Source of the DNA: Candidatus Kaiserbacteria bacterium CG_4_10_14_0_2_um_filter_50_16
Lineage (GTDB): Bacteria > Patescibacteriota > Minisyncoccia > Phycocordibacterales > Phycocordibacteraceae
Assembly: GCA_002793115.1 (NCBI GenBank)
Contig: PFPP01000059.1
Coordinates: forward strand, 1-32,965
Reading direction: 5' to 3'
DNA length: 32,965 bases
The translations under genes and the position numbers were made by a program. Shown here one piece after another: positions 4,864 to 32,773 of this stretch; position 1 is the stretch's first letter; each line of letters opens with the position of its first letter. The notes beneath the pieces were generated by a model that was given only the letters and a program-made list of their open reading frames with translations, did no database searches and was not told the DNA's origin.

Positions 4864-4890
4864 ATGGATTGAAGTCAGGCTTCAATCCAT
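4864..4890. repeat. REP-like palindrome, variant copy
   Basis: ATGGATTGAAGTCAGGCTTCAATCCAT is a 27-nt near-perfect palindrome. Its core GAAGTCAGGCTTC has one mismatch to the family core. Confidence 0.75.
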
Positions 4891-4891
4891 G

Positions 4892-5617
4892 TCAGTCTAG
4901 GTTTCCCAGTAAACATTTCCTCTCATCAAATGTCATCGATTCTATACTATTTCTGGCGAACTCCTTCATTTCATACGGATCAGGAAACGCCTCCCGAAAT
5001 AACTCGTCATTCCCTATCAATCTCTCCATATTTAAGTCAGACTTCAATACATAATACCTTAAGCTACTATATGGATACCTGATAGCGAAATCATAGGCCA
5101 TATCAAAATTTGCAACTGCTCGTTTTAAACCGCCTGGATACATTTCGAAAGCGTTCTTGATATGAAGATAGGAGAACAGGTATCTAAAATAATTATCGTC
5201 ATTAACCAACCGAGCTTTATATGCGCCTTGGAAGAGTCTCCCTGTTTCTCTGTGCCGTTTATTAAATCGATTAGTCATTCCCGTACCAAGTTTCTGCATC
5301 AGCCTTGCTATCCCTCCTTCTACCAATTCCTCCAAAACTAGATGATAATGATTGTCCTGCAAAATAAATGCGTGAAGATTCACCAGCTGTTTCCTCTCAG
5401 GCCATCCAATAGGCCAGATCAGTTTTGTATTGAAGTCAGACTTCAATACTTTCTTGAGAGTTTGCATTGGATTAAGCGGTGAATAATCGCTATTGAAGTA
5501 ATACAGCATCTGCAGGAAATTCCATCGATCCTTATTGTCACGTACGATCTCTTGCTTCCTATTCCCTCTATTAAAGACGTGTACAAAGGACCCTACACCG
5601 AATGATTCCTTCCTCAT
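4892..5617 (-). CDS. REP-associated tyrosine transposase (RAYT; IS200/IS605-like Y1 HUH transposase, COG1943-type)
   Basis: N-terminal VHVFNRGNRKQEI..D..DRWNFLQML is present, followed by the HUH motif in LQDNHYHLVLEE, the catalytic Tyr block FSYLHIKNA, and YPYSS. The gene is flanked by REP palindromes. Confidence 0.8.
   Translation of the reverse strand: MRKESFGVGSFVHVFNRGNRKQEIVRDNKDRWNFLQMLYYFNSDYSPLNPMQTLKKVLKSDFNTKLIWPIGWPERKQLVNLHAFILQDNHYHLVLEELVEGGIARLMQKLGTGMTNRFNKRHRETGRLFQGAYKARLVNDDNYFRYLFSYLHIKNAFEMYPGGLKRAVANFDMAYDFAIRYPYSSLRYYVLKSDLNMERLIGNDELFREAFPDPYEMKEFARNSIESMTFDERKCLLGNLD
5029..5049. repeat. REP-like palindrome inside the RAYT CDS (one mismatch)
   Basis: TATTTAAGTCAGACTTCAATA is read in frame as VLKSDLNM (aa 190-197 of the RAYT). 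Confidence 0.7.
5427..5449. repeat. REP palindrome (perfect) inside the RAYT CDS
   Basis: GTATTGAAGTCAGACTTCAATAC is a perfect 23-nt palindrome around a central A. It is read in frame as VLKSDFNT (aa 57-64). Confidence 0.8.
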
Positions 5618-5636: not shown

Positions 5637-5680
5637 TGTATTGAAGGTATTGAAGTCTGACTTCAATACAACTTCAATTG
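5637..5680. repeat. Composite REP: a perfect 23-nt palindrome nested between two REP half-sites
   Basis: The sequence is TGTATTGAAG-GTATTGAAGTCTGACTTCAATAC-AACTTCAATTG. The inner copy at 5647..5669 has a central T, so it is inverted relative to the copy at 5427. It lies between the helicase stop (5674) and the RAYT start (5617) and may also act as the helicase terminator. Confidence 0.75.
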
Positions 5681-7365
5681 GAACGCATGAGGCGGACGAG
5701 GCGGATTGTTTCGAATGAATGGCGACCGCCGAGCGCATGAAAAACGGTAGAGAGGCGCTCGCTACCGTTTTCTGCGAGCGCTTCGTGAATTTCATCAATC
5801 ACAGTAATTGGTATAAGATGCGCGAAATCAACTCGAACAAGCTTTCCTATCTCTGCCAATTCTTCTAAATGCTTCACAATGGTCGAGACGGAGAGCGAAC
5901 GAGACTTCGCAGCGTCTTTTAGATTTTTCGCGTCTCGTACTGTCTGTAATGTTTCCGCTAACCGAATAGGGAGTCTAGCGCTACCGGACTTCCTGGTCGT
6001 CCCGAGCAAAGGCGAGGGATATGCTCCGCCCATCGCTTTAACAAATTTTTTTTGCATGCCGACCACTTCTGTCTCCGACATCTCGATACTGAATGCTTCA
6101 CGCGCCGCGTCAGACGCGGCGCGAAAATCCATATCCTTCTTTACAATCTCCGGATGCACTTCGAGCGCGCGGTCATTCAAACCAGTAAGATAGAGGCCCG
6201 AGAACCGCCGTACACGCGAGAGCGCAACATATCCCTGCCCATATTCAAACGCTTTGGAGAGATCTATAATCGCGGCATCCATACTCATCCCCTGGCTCTT
6301 GTGTACCGTCATGGCGTATGCGAGTCGGAGCGGTATCTGAGAGATACTTGCGCGCACTTTCCCTTGCTCCTCAAGTTGCCATTCCATGGACTCCGTAGTT
6401 ACGCGGAGCCCATGCCCAGAGCTCGTCGAAGGGCTGCTAATTTCAATAATCGGCAATCCATCGGCACCCCAACCGCTCACTTGCCCTAGCGTGCCGTTTA
6501 CAAATCTGCCCTGCGGAGAGTTCTTGGTAAACATGACTGCCGCACCTTCTTTCAGCTCTAGAATTTCTGGCGATAGACAGCCACGCTTCAGCCCTTCGAC
6601 GAGCGAATCTTTTCCCTTCGAACTCATGCGGAATTTCTTTGACTTCCCGGGAAGTCTCGCGAGCTCGTCGGCGTTGATGCGGTCAACGTCAATGTTATGT
6701 GAGAAAAGTTTCGGTACCTTGCTCATGCTCGGTATCTCAGTCGGAGACATCTGCCGCGCGGCAAGCTGTTCATGATGCATTTTTTCAATATGCCCAGAGC
6801 GCATCGCAGAAAGCACATCCAAAAAGTCGGTATCGTCTTGTCGATACTGTTCGGTGAGATAGCAGGTAATCGGGTTTAAATCGCGCCATACTTTTGATAC
6901 GTACGCGAACTCGACTGCATGGTTTCTTGAGACTGGAGGAAGTTGAAAGAAATCGCCGACGAGAGTGACGGTGAGCCCGCCAAATGGCTTGTCGACGCGG
7001 CGTACCTCGCGGCAGATCGCATCCGCCATCTCGAATGTTGTCGCTGAAAGCATTGAAATCTCCTCGATAATAAGCACTTTTGCTTTCTGTATCCGTTTCG
7101 CAATATGTTCTTTGCTGGCAATACGATCCACGTCGGCTCTAGAAAGCGACTCGCTGATGCCGATGCCACTCCAGGAGTGGAGTGTCATGCCGGAAATATG
7201 AGTCGCCGCGATGCCGGTCGCGGCAGTTACCGACGGCTCGATGCCTAAAGCGCGCAGCCAATCTATGAACTCGTTTATCAGGTGCGTCTTTCCGCTCCCC
7301 GGACTTCCAGTTAGATACACGTTCGCACCGGTCTTCAATATGGTAAGCGCCTCGCCTTGCGTCAT
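5674..7365 (-). CDS. PIF1/RecD-like SF1B DNA helicase with a C-terminal HTH domain
   Basis: Motifs seen are Walker A GSPGSGKTH, motif II LIIEEISML, the PIF1-type GDFFQLPPV and motif VI TVHKSQGMS. The C-terminal roughly 100 aa are HTH_40-like (SLSVSTIVKHLEELAEIG). Confidence 0.85.
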   Translation of the reverse strand: MTQGEALTILKTGANVYLTGSPGSGKTHLINEFIDWLRALGIEPSVTAATGIAATHISGMTLHSWSGIGISESLSRADVDRIASKEHIAKRIQKAKVLIIEEISMLSATTFEMADAICREVRRVDKPFGGLTVTLVGDFFQLPPVSRNHAVEFAYVSKVWRDLNPITCYLTEQYRQDDTDFLDVLSAMRSGHIEKMHHEQLAARQMSPTEIPSMSKVPKLFSHNIDVDRINADELARLPGKSKKFRMSSKGKDSLVEGLKRGCLSPEILELKEGAAVMFTKNSPQGRFVNGTLGQVSGWGADGLPIIEISSPSTSSGHGLRVTTESMEWQLEEQGKVRASISQIPLRLAYAMTVHKSQGMSMDAAIIDLSKAFEYGQGYVALSRVRRFSGLYLTGLNDRALEVHPEIVKKDMDFRAASDAAREAFSIEMSETEVVGMQKKFVKAMGGAYPSPLLGTTRKSGSARLPIRLAETLQTVRDAKNLKDAAKSRSLSVSTIVKHLEELAEIGKLVRVDFAHLIPITVIDEIHEALAENGSERLSTVFHALGGRHSFETIRLVRLMRSN

Positions 7366-8058: not shown

Positions 8059-8098
8059 AAAACAAAAACGTCCATCAATTGATGGACGTTTTTGTTTT
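8059..8098 (+). terminator. Rho-independent terminator (perfect 40-nt palindrome, symmetric A/T tracts)
   Basis: AAAACAAAAACGTCCATCAATTGATGGACGTTTTTGTTTT lies 11 nt after the RRM gene stop. The GC-containing stem is followed by a T-run. Confidence 0.8.
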
Positions 8099-8131: not shown

Positions 8132-8887
8132 ATGACTAAAGACGAGCAGTGGCTCTTGGAGGAAAAATATGGCGGAAGAGAAACGCTCGAATACGAAGCC
8201 GACAAGAAGCGGCTCGCCAGAAGTGAGCCGCTCGCCTACGTCATTGGCTGGCAGCCGTTCCTCGACCTGAAAATCTTTCTCGACTCGAAACCGCTCATTC
8301 CGCGGCCTGAAACAGAGTGGTGGACAGAACAGCTTTTGGCGCATGTAGGACGTAGTACGTCCTACGGGCGATTTCTCGATTTATGTGCTGGCTCGGGTGC
8401 TATCGGCTGTGCGGCGCTCGCGAAACTACCGAACGCCCAAGTGTATTTCTGCGAGATCGATCCGGCGCATGAGGCGACTATTCTCAAAAATATACGCGAA
8501 AATGATTTGAACAAATCGCCTGTCTGCGCGGGCAAGCGTGCTGATATCCGTATCGGCGATCTCTTCAAACCATTTGGCGACATGCGGTTCGACATCATCG
8601 CCGCAAATCCGCCCTACATTCCCGCCGGCCGCACACTTCCCGCGAGCGTCGCCGACTATGAACCGGCAAGCGCCTTCTATGCCGGAGAAGACGGCCTCGC
8701 CAATATTCGCCGCATCGCGACGGAACTGCCACAACATCTTACTCGAGATGGTATTGCGTGGATTGAGTGTGACGATATGTACGCAGAAACCGCACGAATG
8801 TTGTTCGAGTCACACGGTTTTAATGCCGAGATACGCACAGACCAGTACGGCGCCCAGCGTAGTATCGTAGTATCATTCCCCCCATGA
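8132..8887 (+). CDS. prmC: Peptide chain release factor N5-glutamine methyltransferase (PrmC/HemK)
   Basis: The SAM-binding block FLDLCAGSGAIG and the catalytic IIAANPPYIP (NPPY) are present. Confidence 0.85.
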   Translation: MTKDEQWLLEEKYGGRETLEYEADKKRLARSEPLAYVIGWQPFLDLKIFLDSKPLIPRPETEWWTEQLLAHVGRSTSYGRFLDLCAGSGAIGCAALAKLPNAQVYFCEIDPAHEATILKNIRENDLNKSPVCAGKRADIRIGDLFKPFGDMRFDIIAANPPYIPAGRTLPASVADYEPASAFYAGEDGLANIRRIATELPQHLTRDGIAWIECDDMYAETARMLFESHGFNAEIRTDQYGAQRSIVVSFPP

Positions 8888-24348: not shown

Positions 24349-24999
24349 TTACTTACAAGAGCGCCACTTGTCAATATTTGCATGATGGCCAGTTTGAAGG
24401 ACTTTCGGGACGCGATATTTTTTACCTTTATATACAATAGTTTCGGGACGAGTGTAGACCATGTGGGAGGCGATGCGGCGCTCCTCGACTGACGCATCTT
24501 TACCGAGGACACCAGGTAAGCGACGCGTGACAGCATCAACAATTGCGAGCGCCGGAATTTCGCCACCCGTATAGATAGCTTCGCCAATAGCGAATTCTTT
24601 TACCGGTGCGAGTGTCTTGAGGATTTTCTTAGCGCGTTCATCAATGCCCTCATAGCGCCCACATATCAAGATGATATCTTGATATGTGGCGAGTATGTCG
24701 GCATCTTTGTTGGTAAATTGCTTGGCTGATGGAGAGAACCAGATGATTATTTTGTTCCTTCTCACAGTCCCTCGACAAGCTCGGGACACTGCCCGTATGA
24801 CTGGCTGTGCAGTCATTACCATTCCTGGGCCGCCGCCATACGGACGCTCGTCTACCTTGCCCCATTTATTTTCTGTAAAATCGCGTGGGTTCTGATACTT
24901 GACTTCAATTTTTTTTCCTTTTCGAGCGCGTCCGATAATCGACGCGCTTAGGTATGCGTCACAAGCTTCTTTAAAAAGTGTAATGAAATGAAATGTCAC
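24349..24999 (-). CDS. trmD: tRNA (guanine37-N1)-methyltransferase
   Basis: ITLFKEACDAYL...SIIGRA, DERPYGGGPGMVM and LICGRYEGIDER are present. The start codon is GTG. Confidence 0.92.
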   Translation of the reverse strand: MTFHFITLFKEACDAYLSASIIGRARKGKKIEVKYQNPRDFTENKWGKVDERPYGGGPGMVMTAQPVIRAVSRACRGTVRRNKIIIWFSPSAKQFTNKDADILATYQDIILICGRYEGIDERAKKILKTLAPVKEFAIGEAIYTGGEIPALAIVDAVTRRLPGVLGKDASVEERRIASHMVYTRPETIVYKGKKYRVPKVLQTGHHANIDKWRSCK

Positions 25000-29949: not shown

Positions 29950-30639
29950 TCACCACCGCATCGTCGTGAGCCCGGATTCGGCGGCTGCTTGTTCCGCTTC
30001 CTGCTTGCTCTGCCCTTCCCCTCGAGCTATTTCTTCAGTTCCGATGAACACGCCGACGGTAAAAAGTTTCTCGTGGTCGGGACCGACTTCGGATATCGTC
30101 TCATACGCTGGCGTTATGCCGCGCTTCTCCTGCGCAATTTCCTGGAAGCGGCTTTTTGCGTTTTGATAGGAACGCTTCGCGATGATGTCATCGATCTTGC
30201 CGTAAAGGTTCCGCGCAATAAATGTTTCAGCCGCTTCGAATCCCTTATCGAGATAGATTGCGCCGACGATCGCTTCAAAAGCGTCTGCGAGTATGACATC
30301 GCGTGCGCGGTCAGTGTCCTTCGCTTCGCCTTTTGAGAGCAATAGAAAATCGTTGATGTTGAGCGCTCGCGTACTTTCGGCAAGAGAGGCGGTGTTTACC
30401 AGAGCGGCGCGATAGCTGGTAAGTTCGCCCTCGGATGTGGCAGGAAACTTCTTGAAAAGGAAATTGGTGGTAGCGAGCTCGATGACAGCGTCGCCGAGAA
30501 ACTCGAGCCGTTCGTTATGTTTTCCCGCGTAGTCGCGATGTTCGTTGAGATAGGAGCGGTGCGTCAGGGCCTCGATAAAAAGATTAAGATTATTGAATGA
30601 GAGACCGAGTATGCGCGCACAATAAGAAAAATCAGGCAT
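29950..30639 (-). CDS. rnc: Ribonuclease III
   Basis: The signature is HNERLEFLGDAVIEL, and a C-terminal dsRBD is present (KSRFQEIAQEK...FTVGVFIG...GEGQSKQEAEQAAA). The start overlaps the upstream stop by 8 nt. Confidence 0.92.
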   Translation of the reverse strand: MPDFSYCARILGLSFNNLNLFIEALTHRSYLNEHRDYAGKHNERLEFLGDAVIELATTNFLFKKFPATSEGELTSYRAALVNTASLAESTRALNINDFLLLSKGEAKDTDRARDVILADAFEAIVGAIYLDKGFEAAETFIARNLYGKIDDIIAKRSYQNAKSRFQEIAQEKRGITPAYETISEVGPDHEKLFTVGVFIGTEEIARGEGQSKQEAEQAAAESGLTTMRW

Positions 30640-31522
30640 ATGCGTCGAGGAGTTTTTGAACGGCTACTGTAACGATAGGAAGCATATCATCATAAAAGTT
30701 GAGATCAATAATGTCTTGGAGACGGAACCATTTCGCATCATCAAGCCCGCCACTTTTCTTGAGTACGATTGGCTCGAAGCTACTTGAGGCGAGAAAGAAC
30801 CATACATGCTTACGCACCCTTCCCCTTTCCGGATGCGAAGCGACGTACTCGTTCTCGCCGACTTTGGTCCCTATAGTAGCAGTAAGACCGAGTTCTTCCT
30901 TGATAACGCGCGCGATGCCGACCTCCAGCGTCATATCCTCTTCGATGTGGCCTTTTGAGAGCGTCCAGTGGCCGAAAACATCGTGTACAAGTGCCAGATA
31001 ATACTGCCCGTTATGTGTGGCATATACGATCGCGCCTCCCATTTTTTCTACAGGCAAATCTTCACGCTTCGTCTTTTTTATCCCCTGTTCGTCTTTCCCT
31101 GGCTCGCCGAGCTCTTTATACACCGCGCCCAACACGCCGTTTATAAAACGACCCGAAGAATCGCCGCCAAAAGTCTTCGCGAGCTCGATGGCTTCATTAA
31201 TGGCAACCTTCGCCGGCACTTGCGCGCGATCGGCGAAGAGGAGTTCGTAAAGTCCGAGGCGCAGGATATTGCGATCGATCGGTGCGATGCGCTCGAGGGG
31301 CCACTCCGGTGCGGCCTTCTCGATAACGAGATCAATGTCGCTCCGTTTCGCGAGGACGCCAGAGAGGAGGTTGTCTATAAATGGCTGATCGGCATCGCCG
31401 CCGCCGAATTCAGCGATGTTGCGCGCGAGAATCGTTTGAGTATCCTTCTCACTCGCATGGGTAGTGTCCCATTCGAAGAGCGTCTGAAGAACAACGGAGC
31501 GCGCTAAATGTCGGTTCGCCAT
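30632..31522 (-). CDS. nusB: NusB antitermination factor fused to a C-terminal Nudix-fold domain
   Basis: The N-terminal roughly 140 aa are NusB (RSVVLQTLFEWD..., IDRNILRLGLYELLF, AINEAIELAKTFGGDSSGRFINGVLG). The C-terminal roughly 150 aa are Nudix-like (GHWTLSKGHIEEDMTLEVGIARVIKEELGL). I chose the ATG at 31522 (MANRHLARS). The ORF-track extension reads through a palindrome. Confidence 0.8.
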   Translation of the reverse strand: MANRHLARSVVLQTLFEWDTTHASEKDTQTILARNIAEFGGGDADQPFIDNLLSGVLAKRSDIDLVIEKAAPEWPLERIAPIDRNILRLGLYELLFADRAQVPAKVAINEAIELAKTFGGDSSGRFINGVLGAVYKELGEPGKDEQGIKKTKREDLPVEKMGGAIVYATHNGQYYLALVHDVFGHWTLSKGHIEEDMTLEVGIARVIKEELGLTATIGTKVGENEYVASHPERGRVRKHVWFFLASSSFEPIVLKKSGGLDDAKWFRLQDIIDLNFYDDMLPIVTVAVQKLLDAYA

Positions 31523-31588
31523 GGAAAGATCTGTGTGGAGTAAGTATATAACAGACCAAGTGACTGCGCAAACTGCGCATGTGCAAAA

Positions 31589-31637
31589 AACGTGGCGGTT
31601 CGACCGCCAAGTTGCTTGGCGGTCGAACCGCCACGTT
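31589..31637 (-). terminator. Rho-independent terminator downstream of rpmF (perfect 23-bp stem)
   Basis: The minus strand reads AACGTGGCGGTTCGACCGCCAAG-CAA-CTTGGCGGTCGAACCGCCACGTT followed by TTTTTTG. It lies 16 nt after the L32 stop. Confidence 0.7.
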
Positions 31638-31653
31638 AACCGCCACGTTAAAA

Positions 31654-32013
31654 TCAAACACCGCCGCCGAAACCGCTCCGAGCTTTCGGCCGGCCGCCGG
31701 TCGCGACCTTGCCAGAAATCCCTTTTGAACTTTCCGCTTCTGCGTTTGCATGAATTTCCTGTGCATGTTCATGCGCATGCTTTTCTGCAGGCGCAGTAGA
31801 AGGACCTTTTGCTTTTGATTCATGCTTGGTCTTCACTTTGGGCGTAAAAATCTGCTTGCCACGATACATGCCAGTTGCCTCATCGAGACGATGCGGGAGA
31901 CGGAGATTGCCGCTTTCTTTATCCTGTATCGCTTGAATGCCTTTAAGTGCATGATGCGACCGGCGATTACCGGTATGGCCTCTGGTATGACGCATGCGAA
32001 TTGACATAGACAC
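31654..32013 (-). CDS. rpmF: 50S ribosomal protein L32 (Cys-less form) with a long C-terminal extension
   Basis: MSIRMRHTRGHTGNRRSHHALKG...LRLPHRLDEATGMYRGKQIF matches the bL32 pattern (RR.HHAL, LPHR, G.Y.G). It is followed by a tail of about 60 aa rich in Lys, His, Ala and Gly. Confidence 0.8.
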   Translation of the reverse strand: MSMSIRMRHTRGHTGNRRSHHALKGIQAIQDKESGNLRLPHRLDEATGMYRGKQIFTPKVKTKHESKAKGPSTAPAEKHAHEHAQEIHANAEAESSKGISGKVATGGRPKARSGFGGGV

Positions 32014-32161: not shown

Positions 32162-32773
32162 TTAACTCTTCAGGTGTATGAAAGAGTGGCGGTGGATAAC
32201 GCAAGGTCCGTACTTCTTGAGCGCTTCGTAATGCGCCATTGTACCGTACCCTTTATGTTTTTCGAAACCATAGAGTGGGTACTGCTCCGCCAGTTCAACC
32301 ATGAGTCTGTCGCGAGTTATCTTCGCCGCAATGGAAGCAAGCGAGATAACAGGGACTAGCCCGTCGCCATTGATGATGGTCTCTTGCATATATTCTTGTG
32401 GTGCGTGGAGCGCGCCGTCGAGCAAAATATGGAAGTCAGACTTCTGAAAATTCCTTGAAGTCTGACTTCCATATTTTACAAGCTTGTTCACGCCGCGCGA
32501 GAGCGCGCGGCGTATGGCAGGTACAATACCTTCCCTATCGATCATCTCGGCATCTTCGAGCTCAACTGTAAAACGCACGTCTCCAAAGGCGACGCGCGCT
32601 TCCAGCATTCTAAAAAGCCTTTCACGTTTTTTCTCCGAAAGTTTTTTAGAATCAGCAACACCCAGGAACTCCCGCGCCACATCAAACTCTTCAGGCACAG
32701 CAACCACCCCAACAGCGACTGGCCCCGCCAGAGGCCCCCGTCCCGCCTCATCCACTCCAAGCACGCATCGCAT
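32162..32773 (-). CDS. rnhB: Ribonuclease HII (carrying an in-frame palindromic insertion)
   Basis: GVDEAGRGPLAGPVAVGVV, ADSKKLSEKKRE, LLDG and SIAAKITRD are present. The ORF is intact. Confidence 0.9.
   Translation of the reverse strand: MRCVLGVDEAGRGPLAGPVAVGVVAVPEEFDVAREFLGVADSKKLSEKKRERLFRMLEARVAFGDVRFTVELEDAEMIDREGIVPAIRRALSRGVNKLVKYGSQTSRNFQKSDFHILLDGALHAPQEYMQETIINGDGLVPVISLASIAAKITRDRLMVELAEQYPLYGFEKHKGYGTMAHYEALKKYGPCVIHRHSFIHLKS
32424..32477. repeat. REPIN-like inverted REP doublet inside rnhB
   Basis: The arms are AAAATATGGAAGTCAGACTTC and GAAGTCTGACTTCCATATTTT, separated by the 12-nt spacer tgaaaattcctt. They form a perfect 21-nt inverted repeat, and each arm carries the 13-nt family core. 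Confidence 0.8.

Follow-up and report, generated by a model that had tools for sequence, protein, structure and literature searches.

The RNase HII gene (rnhB) of Candidatus Kaiserbacteria bacterium CG_4_10_14_0_2_um_filter_50_16, located on contig PFPP01000059.1 (assembly GCA_002793115.1), contains a 54-nucleotide (nt) palindromic doublet that is translated in frame and consists of two inverted copies of a hairpin that is also found around and inside a Y1/HUH transposase gene. In related lineages, the same codon position of rnhB is occupied by hairpin-derived segments with different cores. We conclude that the doublet probably is a dimer of repetitive extragenic palindromic (REP) units that was mobilized by its cognate Y1 transposase into a permissive, probably targeted loop, that it is read through, and that its arms are kept perfect by turnover, template switching or both. 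The DNA read for this genome is the complete 32,965-nt stretch (33 kb; hereinafter, the window); relatives were read in windows of up to 20 kb, and their loci are denoted by L numbers.

A palindromic doublet translated within the RNase HII gene

The doublet consists of two 21-nt arms, AAAATATGGAAGTCAGACTTC (32424-32444) and GAAGTCTGACTTCCATATTTT (32457-32477), for which the repeat finder reports 100% complementarity, separated by a 12-nt spacer (32445-32456); each arm includes one 13-nt core of the form GAAGTC-N-GACTTC (32432-32444 and 32457-32469). The preliminary description of this DNA had noted a perfect inverted repeat in frame within rnhB, and both direct reading of the sequence and the repeat finder agree: the open reading frame (ORF) reads ...NKLVKYGSQTSRNFQKSDFHILLDG..., and the minus-strand translation of the doublet is (V)KYGSQTSRNFQKSDFHI(L). 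The two inverted units fold as a single long hairpin, which is the architecture of a REPIN (REP doublet forming a hairpin). Specifically, the mRNA strand is predicted to form a perfect 23-bp helix (-35.5 kcal/mol, z = -10.1), and the predicted folding energy of the DNA is -21.6 kcal/mol. The same doublet is present, unchanged, in five independent assemblies from ENA, Logan and JGI (L083, L084, L085, L092 and L093); it is therefore no assembly artefact, a concern that had been raised in the preliminary description.

The host protein is a typical RNase HII that matches the Pfam RNase_HII model over its whole length (residues 5-199; 1.5e-35, 123 bits). The residues D8, E9, D119 and D137 are invariant in 27 RnhB sequences and align with those of the E. 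coli RNase HII (7UWE), compared to which the protein contains an 11-residue gap-insert at the position of the doublet. In the AlphaFold model (predicted TM-score, pTM, of 0.81), residues 100-110 (KYGSQTSRNFQ) form a low-confidence surface loop, with the mean predicted local distance difference test (pLDDT) value of 58, between the helix 83-99 and the strand 111-119 (KSDFHILLD) that carries the catalytic Asp119. Judging from this model, the first core and the spacer supply the 11 residues of the surface loop, and the beta-strand begins with codons rewritten by the second core. The ORF reading and the model are in accord with the proposal that the element is translated just before the strand with the catalytic aspartate, and the surface loop that was to be sought by structure prediction is indeed found. 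With the ORF open, the catalytic residues kept and the loop modelled at low confidence, this is an in-frame insertion at a position that the fold tolerates. The preliminary description called rnhB essential; in E. coli, the gene is dispensable.

Hairpins of the Y1 transposase gene and its relatives

The core GAAGTCNGACTTC, with at most one mismatch, is found six times in the window against 0.08 occurrences expected, and none of 100 shuffled sequences (0/100) reached six; the core thus qualifies as a short palindromic unit repeated beyond chance, as is characteristic of REPs. Four of the six copies are exact (5432, 5652, 32432 and 32457) and two contain one mismatch (4871 and 5033). Four of the six cluster at 4.86-5.67 kb, around and inside the gene for a Y1/HUH transposase similar to the REP-associated tyrosine transposases (RAYT), 27 kb away from rnhB (Table 1). 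The enrichment of the core and the copies at the Y1 gene bear out the description of the doublet as REPIN-like and as belonging to a hairpin family tied to that gene. The accompanying statement that the cores flank the transposase gene holds for the outermost two hairpins, whereas the other two are located inside the ORF.

The HUH (HYH) and tyrosine motifs are present in the alignment of the window Y1 protein, which was made with two homologues that are just 33% identical. A total of 267 homologues of this protein were identified, most of them 237-245 amino acids (aa) long, and all those with a named source come from Patescibacteria. The peptide (L/I/V)LKSDF(N/Y) that covers the first internal core is conserved in the Y1 subfamily down to approximately 50% identity, and the C-terminal LKSDFN is shared by closer relatives only. 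Recent REP insertion into the window transposase gene was considered for the internal copies and rejected, given that the subfamily alignment identifies the first of them as a conserved motif.

Hairpins with this core, hereinafter type A, accompany the transposase gene in relatives as well. In L172, where the Y1 protein is 57% identical to that of the window, two type-A hairpins are located upstream of the Y1 gene, one falls exactly on the LLKSDFNT codons and another is found at the 3' end of the ORF. In L173 (48% identity), the motif position reads LFKTGPNK and there is no type-A core within 20 kb. Members of a second Y1 subfamily possess flanking hairpins of their own, namely, AAGTTAGGACATC-N-GATGTCCTAACTT in L104 and TTAGGACAC-NNN-GTGTCCTAA in L090. 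Thus, repeats flank the Y1 gene, in the arrangement known as a REPtron, in the window, L172, L104 and L090. Across 817 kb of related loci, no odd palindrome is commoner than type A (34 copies); some copies reside in convergent intergenic regions, where, framed by A-tracts and T-tracts, they resemble bidirectional terminators (L081, L088, L089 and L115). A scan of 2.9 million viral contigs for the hairpin detected 23 isolated single sites, which is estimated to be about the chance level, and a viral origin of the hairpin was accordingly rejected. The best explanation of these sequence relationships is that the type-A hairpin is the cognate repeat of a Y1/HUH subfamily specific to Patescibacteria.

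Recurrence at one codon position of rnhB and hairpins in other genes

The RnhB proteins compared were 120 close homologues (70-98% identity) from sources named as Patescibacteria, Paceibacterota, Minisyncoccota or Kaiserbacteria; the DNA of the site was examined in about 85 loci, which came from look-ups of exact proteins and from scanning metagenomes with a clade-specific segment. A contig scan with the full RnhB alignment pulled in Firmicutes through the universal motifs YGFEKHKG and DSKKLSEK, and none of its 80 loci contained the core. About 48 of the 120 homologues have the canonical short loop ...LAPDSALVHIQLDG, and the remainder have longer, highly variable segments at this position; the canonical loop PDSALVHIQLDG is found also in outgroups and in E. 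coli. Comparison of the DNA sequences shows 54 nt in the long form in place of 27 nt, encoding PDSALVxxQ, in the short form, without a direct repeat (target-site duplication) flanking the doublet. The 18-codon insertion originally proposed is, accordingly, an insertion relative to the canonical RNase HII, but one in which 54 nt replaced 27 nt, so that the net gain over the short-form orthologues is nine residues.

The insertion is not specific to one lineage, as had been suggested: in approximately 60% of the 120 close orthologues, an insert derived from some hairpin occupies this site, and at least four different cores are represented. Type-A doublets, which share the core and a spacer length of 12 nt, are present in the window lineage, L081/L110, L086, L087, L088, L101 and L117. 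Perfect inverted repeats unlike type A are found, among others, in L113, L146, L094, L122 and L165; in particular, CAAAATGTGGACACCCGGTGTC-12 nt-GACACCGGGTGTCCACATTTTG in L113 and AATTCGCAGGTCAGACCTGCGCA-10 nt-TGCGCAGGTCTGACCTGCGAATT in L146 lie at the same codon boundary, and L123, L136 and L150 are similar to the latter. Single hairpins occupy the site in L094/L095, L122, L165, L115 and L089. None of the short-form loci among the approximately 85 examined has an inverted repeat at the insertion site. Loops of equal length and similar sequence that lack the core had been named as potential counterevidence, which neither of two loci that come close provides. The equal-length loop of L113 is encoded by the different palindrome given above. 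In L087, the peptide is retained although one G>A change in each core, both synonymous, has broken the palindromes, so that the type-A element itself seems to be decaying there. The rnhB loop is, therefore, a recurrent insertion hotspot rather than the site of a one-off event. Several inserts appear nested or duplicated (homologues P0034, P0040, P0068 and P0018, and also L117; for example, ECGSQFPRSQTS...KSDFDFH), which suggests either a second hit or slippage inside the resident element. Next to the doublet, a GC-rich hairpin (Table 1) is kept in nearly all rnhB orthologues, insert-bearing or not; it could reflect coincidental codon usage or be relevant to the site being a hotspot.

The phylogenetic distribution of the inserts was assessed using a tree of DnaE (1,010 ungapped columns, 200 bootstraps), after a neighbor-joining tree of RnhB alone had been dropped for its poor resolution. 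In the DnaE tree, insert-bearing loci group among short forms: L087 with L169 (83%) and L106 (99%), L081 together with L088 with L108 (96%), and L113 with L124 and L126 (100%); L095 belongs to a clade that otherwise includes only short forms (100%). Because the canonical loop is the one seen in E. coli and in the outgroups, and deletion could not restore it, this distribution implies that inserts were acquired independently at least four times or spread by local gene conversion. Apart from the insert, the identity of long-form rnhB alleles to any other allele is only 73-86%, and their nearest neighbours are often short forms. Horizontal transfer of ready-made long alleles as a whole was considered as well and is not indicated by these identities because the flanks are closest to short-form alleles; gene conversion at the level of the patch may have taken place.

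Conservation of the arms was estimated across six type-A lineages. Nucleotide identity is 92-93% in the cores and 83-89% in the outer arms, compared to 73% in the rest of rnhB, and drops to a near-random 32% in the spacer. At codons for identical residues, third positions match in 86% of the cases (103/120) in the cores versus 52% elsewhere. The outer arms vary by lineage with complementarity kept (ATATG/CATAT in the window, ATGTG/CACAT in L081 and TACG/CGTAT in L089). Conserved arms are therefore either young, being delivered again and again by a population of repeats that is itself conserved, or under active maintenance.

DnaE, the alpha subunit of DNA polymerase III, has a hotspot comparable to that of rnhB. 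In-frame doublets that differ from each other are located directly before the A(I/V)RFG motif in L154 (GISDIGCPTSDVGHPMSYMG, 5094-5134) and L104 (VGRPTSDVGRPTSYMG). Further hairpin-encoded insertions are present in L108 and L113, which have a common segment ARTEQF(P/L)SKEIAYPK, and in L115, where a 13-bp hairpin encodes SARGGSASGG. In view of these DnaE doublets and other hairpin inserts, in-frame residence in replication genes is general in this clade. The L154 DnaE (1,514 aa) also contains an apparent intein-like insertion, judged by eye from its length and sequence.

Table 1. Location of the rnhB doublet, its host gene, the Y1 transposase gene and associated hairpins in the window
Feature	Position	Strand	Basis or remark
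rnhB (RNase HII), 203 aa, host gene	32162..32773	-	Pfam RNase_HII, alignment, structure model
REPIN-like doublet, 54 nt	32424..32477	-	Sequence reading, repeat finder, folding
GC-rich hairpin ACGCCGCGCG-agag-CGCGCGGCGT	32490..32513	.	Encodes RRALSRG; 13 nt from the doublet
Y1/HUH (IS200-like, RAYT-like) transposase gene, 241 aa	4892..5617	-	Motifs NHYHLVL and Y..H
REP hairpin GTATTGAAGTCtGACTTCAATAC	5647..5669	.	Immediately upstream of the transposase gene
REP hairpin GTATTGAAGTCaGACTTCAATAC	5427..5449	.	Within the transposase ORF, read VLKSDFNT
REP copy with one mismatch, ATATTTAAGTCAGACTTCAATAC	5028..5050	.	Within the transposase ORF, read VLKSDLNM; closer relatives only
Degenerate REP hairpin ATGGATTGAAGtcaggCTTCAATCCAT	4864..4890	.	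Immediately downstream of the transposase stop codon

Additional hairpins were observed elsewhere in the window. In trmD (24349-24999, minus strand), a perfect 14-bp inverted repeat at 24659-24689 (CCACATATCAAGAT-gat-ATCTTGATATGTGG) covers the conserved motif ILICGRYEG. An insertion is ruled out in this case because the length is unchanged compared to 16 orthologues. The sequence changed from LAKYDDVVLVCG to LATYQDIILICG, with K>T and D>Q replacements as the cost, and the left arm is now the reverse complement of the right arm, which is conserved; such apparent rewriting of one arm resembles a template-switch mutation. A prmC/hemK-like ORF (8132-8887, plus strand) contains a GTAG-tagged palindrome at 8345-8365 (GTAGGACGTAgTACGTCCTAC), translated in frame to VGRSTSY immediately ahead of the SAM-binding motif DLCAGSG; this palindrome closely resembles the DnaE insert of L104, and it was not accepted as a clear insertion given that the loop is only two residues longer than that of E. 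coli HemK. Upstream of this gene, an intergenic perfect 40-nt palindrome without a spacer is present at 8059-8098 (AAAACAAAAACGTCCATCAA directly followed by TTGATGGACGTTTTTGTTTT). At 31589-31637, two copies of the palindrome GGCGGTTCGACCGCC make up a perfect 23-bp inverted repeat with a 3-nt loop (-46.8 kcal/mol) that precedes a U-run on the minus strand; this strong terminator-like doublet, located between rpmF and nusB, may belong to a second repeat family. The PIF1-like helicase ORF that adjoins the transposase gene (5674-7365, minus strand) contains two in-frame perfect hairpins, at 5741-5771 (AAAACGGTAG-11 nt-CTACCGTTTT) and at 6101-6123 (CGCGCCGCGTCaGACGCGGCGCG). Finally, at 30632-31657, NusB is fused to a NUDIX domain, a feature of this clade that is kept in the syntenic loci L081-L090.

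Origin, persistence and relation to known repeat systems

The sequence comparisons show the anatomy of the doublet and its connection with the transposase; they also show that it replaced the canonical loop, that inserts recur on the tree and that the arms are conserved at the nucleotide level. From these data we infer the following course of events, in which the transposase mobilizes the element and RnhB remains active, along with the cause of the hotspot. By analogy with the enzymes of IS200/IS605 insertion sequences and RAYTs, the transposase would recognize the hairpin on single-stranded DNA and move or copy it. A single event would have set a type-A dimer into the loop segment of rnhB, between the helix 83-99 and the strand with Asp119, replacing 27 nt. 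The gene stays open because the palindrome has no stop codon in either of the two frames used (GSQTS and KSDF), and the RnhB protein with the insert presumably is still active. In related lineages, the same codon boundary would have received monomers or dimers, with cores of other kinds, on several independent occasions. The near-perfect arms, despite the drifting spacer, likely result from turnover from the genomic repeat population, from intrastrand template switching between the arms, or from both.

Several observations weigh against this scenario. No empty-site allele, which the preliminary description had proposed to look for in sibling strains, was found among the near-identical strains L083, L084, L085, L092 and L093; the doublet is fixed across all of those sampled. 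Only two loci in the 33-kb window carry the core. The window Y1 protein falls short of the cut-offs for both Pfam Y1_Tnp (21.9 bits against 23) and the NCBIfam RAYT model NF047646 (23.7 bits against 80), and has no sequence match to any solved structure; the Y1 proteins overall score 24-40 bits on the NCBIfam model, and the relatives in L104 and L090 are above the Pfam threshold and below that of NCBIfam. The synonymous breaks in both cores of L087 hint at a protein-level rather than DNA-level constraint in that lineage, and the trmD hairpin, which involves no insertion, is a case of a palindrome of this genome formed in place. It is hard to explain how independent insertions could delete the same 27 nt, with shared boundaries and frame, unless the putative target specificity is strong. 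The mode of transposition of the IS200/IS605 elements, such as IS608 and ISDra2, in which a Y1/HUH enzyme acts on subterminal single-stranded DNA hairpins, at site-specific targets and without target-site duplication, would, by analogy, fit a hotspot with fixed boundaries and no flanking direct repeat. The rnhB element differs from these insertion sequences in lacking both an internal transposase gene and asymmetric left and right ends; the lack of target-site duplication also sets it apart from miniature inverted-repeat transposable elements.

The main rival explanation, which we regard as unlikely, is selection for the hairpin as a structure that acts in cis in the DNA or transcript of rnhB, such as a site for RNase III or mRNA stability, for pausing or for protein binding; its likeness to the repeat family would then be due to co-option or to a common binding protein, and its persistence would be explained by structure rather than mobility. 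The conservation of synonymous sites in the arms far above the rest of the gene, with a freely varying loop, the lineage-specific changes of the outer arms that remain complementary, and the fixed position and frame across lineages are all compatible with such selection, and the perfect 23-bp RNA helix is a plausible substrate for RNase III, the gene for which (rnc) is located three genes downstream. However, there is no structure at the site in about 40% of the close orthologues, sister lineages included, both cores are decayed in L087, and the cores are the same as those of repeats elsewhere in the same contigs and around Y1 genes. The operon link is weakened by the strong terminator that parts rpmF from nusB and rnc, and so is autoregulation of RNase III through co-transcription of rnc, which had been considered as a candidate mechanism. 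A search of the window against Rfam matched no family anywhere.

The preferred reading, insertion of a mobile REP dimer, also has a more far-reaching variant that we consider comparably improbable, namely, that the rnhB and dnaE loops are homing sites for REP dimers, to which the Y1 enzyme, or the replication fork at hairpin-prone sites, repeatedly delivers in-frame, stop-free hairpins, at the same codon of replication genes, that are then kept at the nucleotide level as a functional part of the locus. If so, this would be a site-specific, translated, non-spliced selfish element that does not owe its maintenance to neutrality; it could, for instance, serve for binding or processing and thereby couple the repeat system to genes of replication and repair.

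It is less probable still that the palindrome was built in place, without transposition, by intrastrand template switching (quasipalindrome correction) during replication. That process yields perfect inverted repeats whose arms change together, and the trmD hairpin, of unchanged length and in the same window, looks like a product of it; in addition, the right outer arm of the rnhB element, CCACATTC, is similar to the ancestral V-H-I-L codons in some short forms. In-place formation, however, imports no 13-nt core common to distant loci, and it leaves unexplained both the identity of the core with the hairpins of the Y1 gene 27 kb away and with intergenic copies in other genomes, and the net gain of 27 nt. 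Template switching could well account for the upkeep of the perfect arms after insertion.

It is very unlikely that the core serves as a signal for DNA uptake or as a generic kind of terminator that genes happen to tolerate: several copies do lie in convergent intergenic regions with the terminator-like A-tract and T-tract flanks, but the association with Y1 genes is tight, the isolated sites in viral contigs are at about chance level, and the density is low. The core marks two loci in the 33-kb window and is found one to three times per 20-kb locus, compared to about one copy per kb for known DNA-uptake signals. An artefact of assembly or chimerism has a negligible probability given the identical element in the five assemblies from three sources and the homologous elements in dozens of other contigs.

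The general phenomenon is known, in that in-frame REPs in replication and repair genes have been described: GTAG and CGTC REPs are found inside ORFs, many of them in replication and repair genes, and more than half of these are dimers that encode 20-30 residues (Di Nocera et al. 2013, PMC3733652). The Rickettsia palindromic elements (RPEs), presented in the preliminary description as the only well-known parallel, are thus not alone. As summarized in PMC10969869 and PMC3733652 (originally, Ogata et al. 2000), RPEs are the classic in-frame case: palindromic, selfish-looking DNA of about 100-150 bp, located in frame in conserved housekeeping genes, translated, fold-compatible and common to related species. 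Within the scope of these summaries, RPEs differ from the 54-nt element described here, with its cognate Y1 gene, in their length, their unrelated sequence and their lack of a dedicated linked transposase.

The closest resemblance is to the REP/REPIN-RAYT systems, which consist of short hairpin repeats, often in inverted pairs that fold as a longer hairpin, with copies that flank a Y1/HUH transposase gene, most other copies downstream of genes, and some in frame in ORFs, notably those of replication and repair genes, where they encode about 20 residues. The system analyzed here differs in several respects. The host belongs to Patescibacteria, and the core is unrelated to the described families. 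The window copies (GTATTGAAGTC and ATATGGAAGTC) lack a consistent GTAG or CGTC tag, and the GTAG tag is present only in some related elements (GTAGGACATC in L154, GTAGGGAAGTC in L089 and GTAGGACGTA at 8345 in the window). The transposase is far under the curated RAYT threshold and forms a subfamily of its own, in which a copy of the repeat is a conserved part of the transposase ORF (the KSDF motif). Furthermore, the same rnhB codon position has been repeatedly colonized by different cores. Among the papers searched, there was nothing relevant on RAYT or palindromic in-frame elements in the Candidate Phyla Radiation/Patescibacteria. What appears to be new is, accordingly, the occurrence of such a family in Patescibacteria, the divergent Y1 subfamily with a repeat copy as a conserved motif of its own ORF, and the colonization of the same codon by different cores.

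Patescibacteria have very small genomes with little intergenic space, and the findings described here bear on where selfish repeats can survive in such genomes: hairpin repeats tied to a divergent Y1 transposase are found translated inside RNase HII and the alpha subunit of DNA polymerase III. The loop region of RnhB is homoplastic, and caution is therefore due in the annotation and phylogenetic analysis of these genomes. The preference of intragenic REPs for replication and repair genes, noted in 2013, is seen in a distant phylum as well, which suggests that the link has a mechanistic basis and is not accidental. Recurrence at the same codon in separate lineages amounts to a natural experiment on insertion-tolerant protein loops and points to a possible target rule for RAYT-like enzymes, the mobility of which is seldom caught. 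The same-codon hotspot of rnhB across lineages, with its parallel in dnaE, is the most informative aspect of this system.

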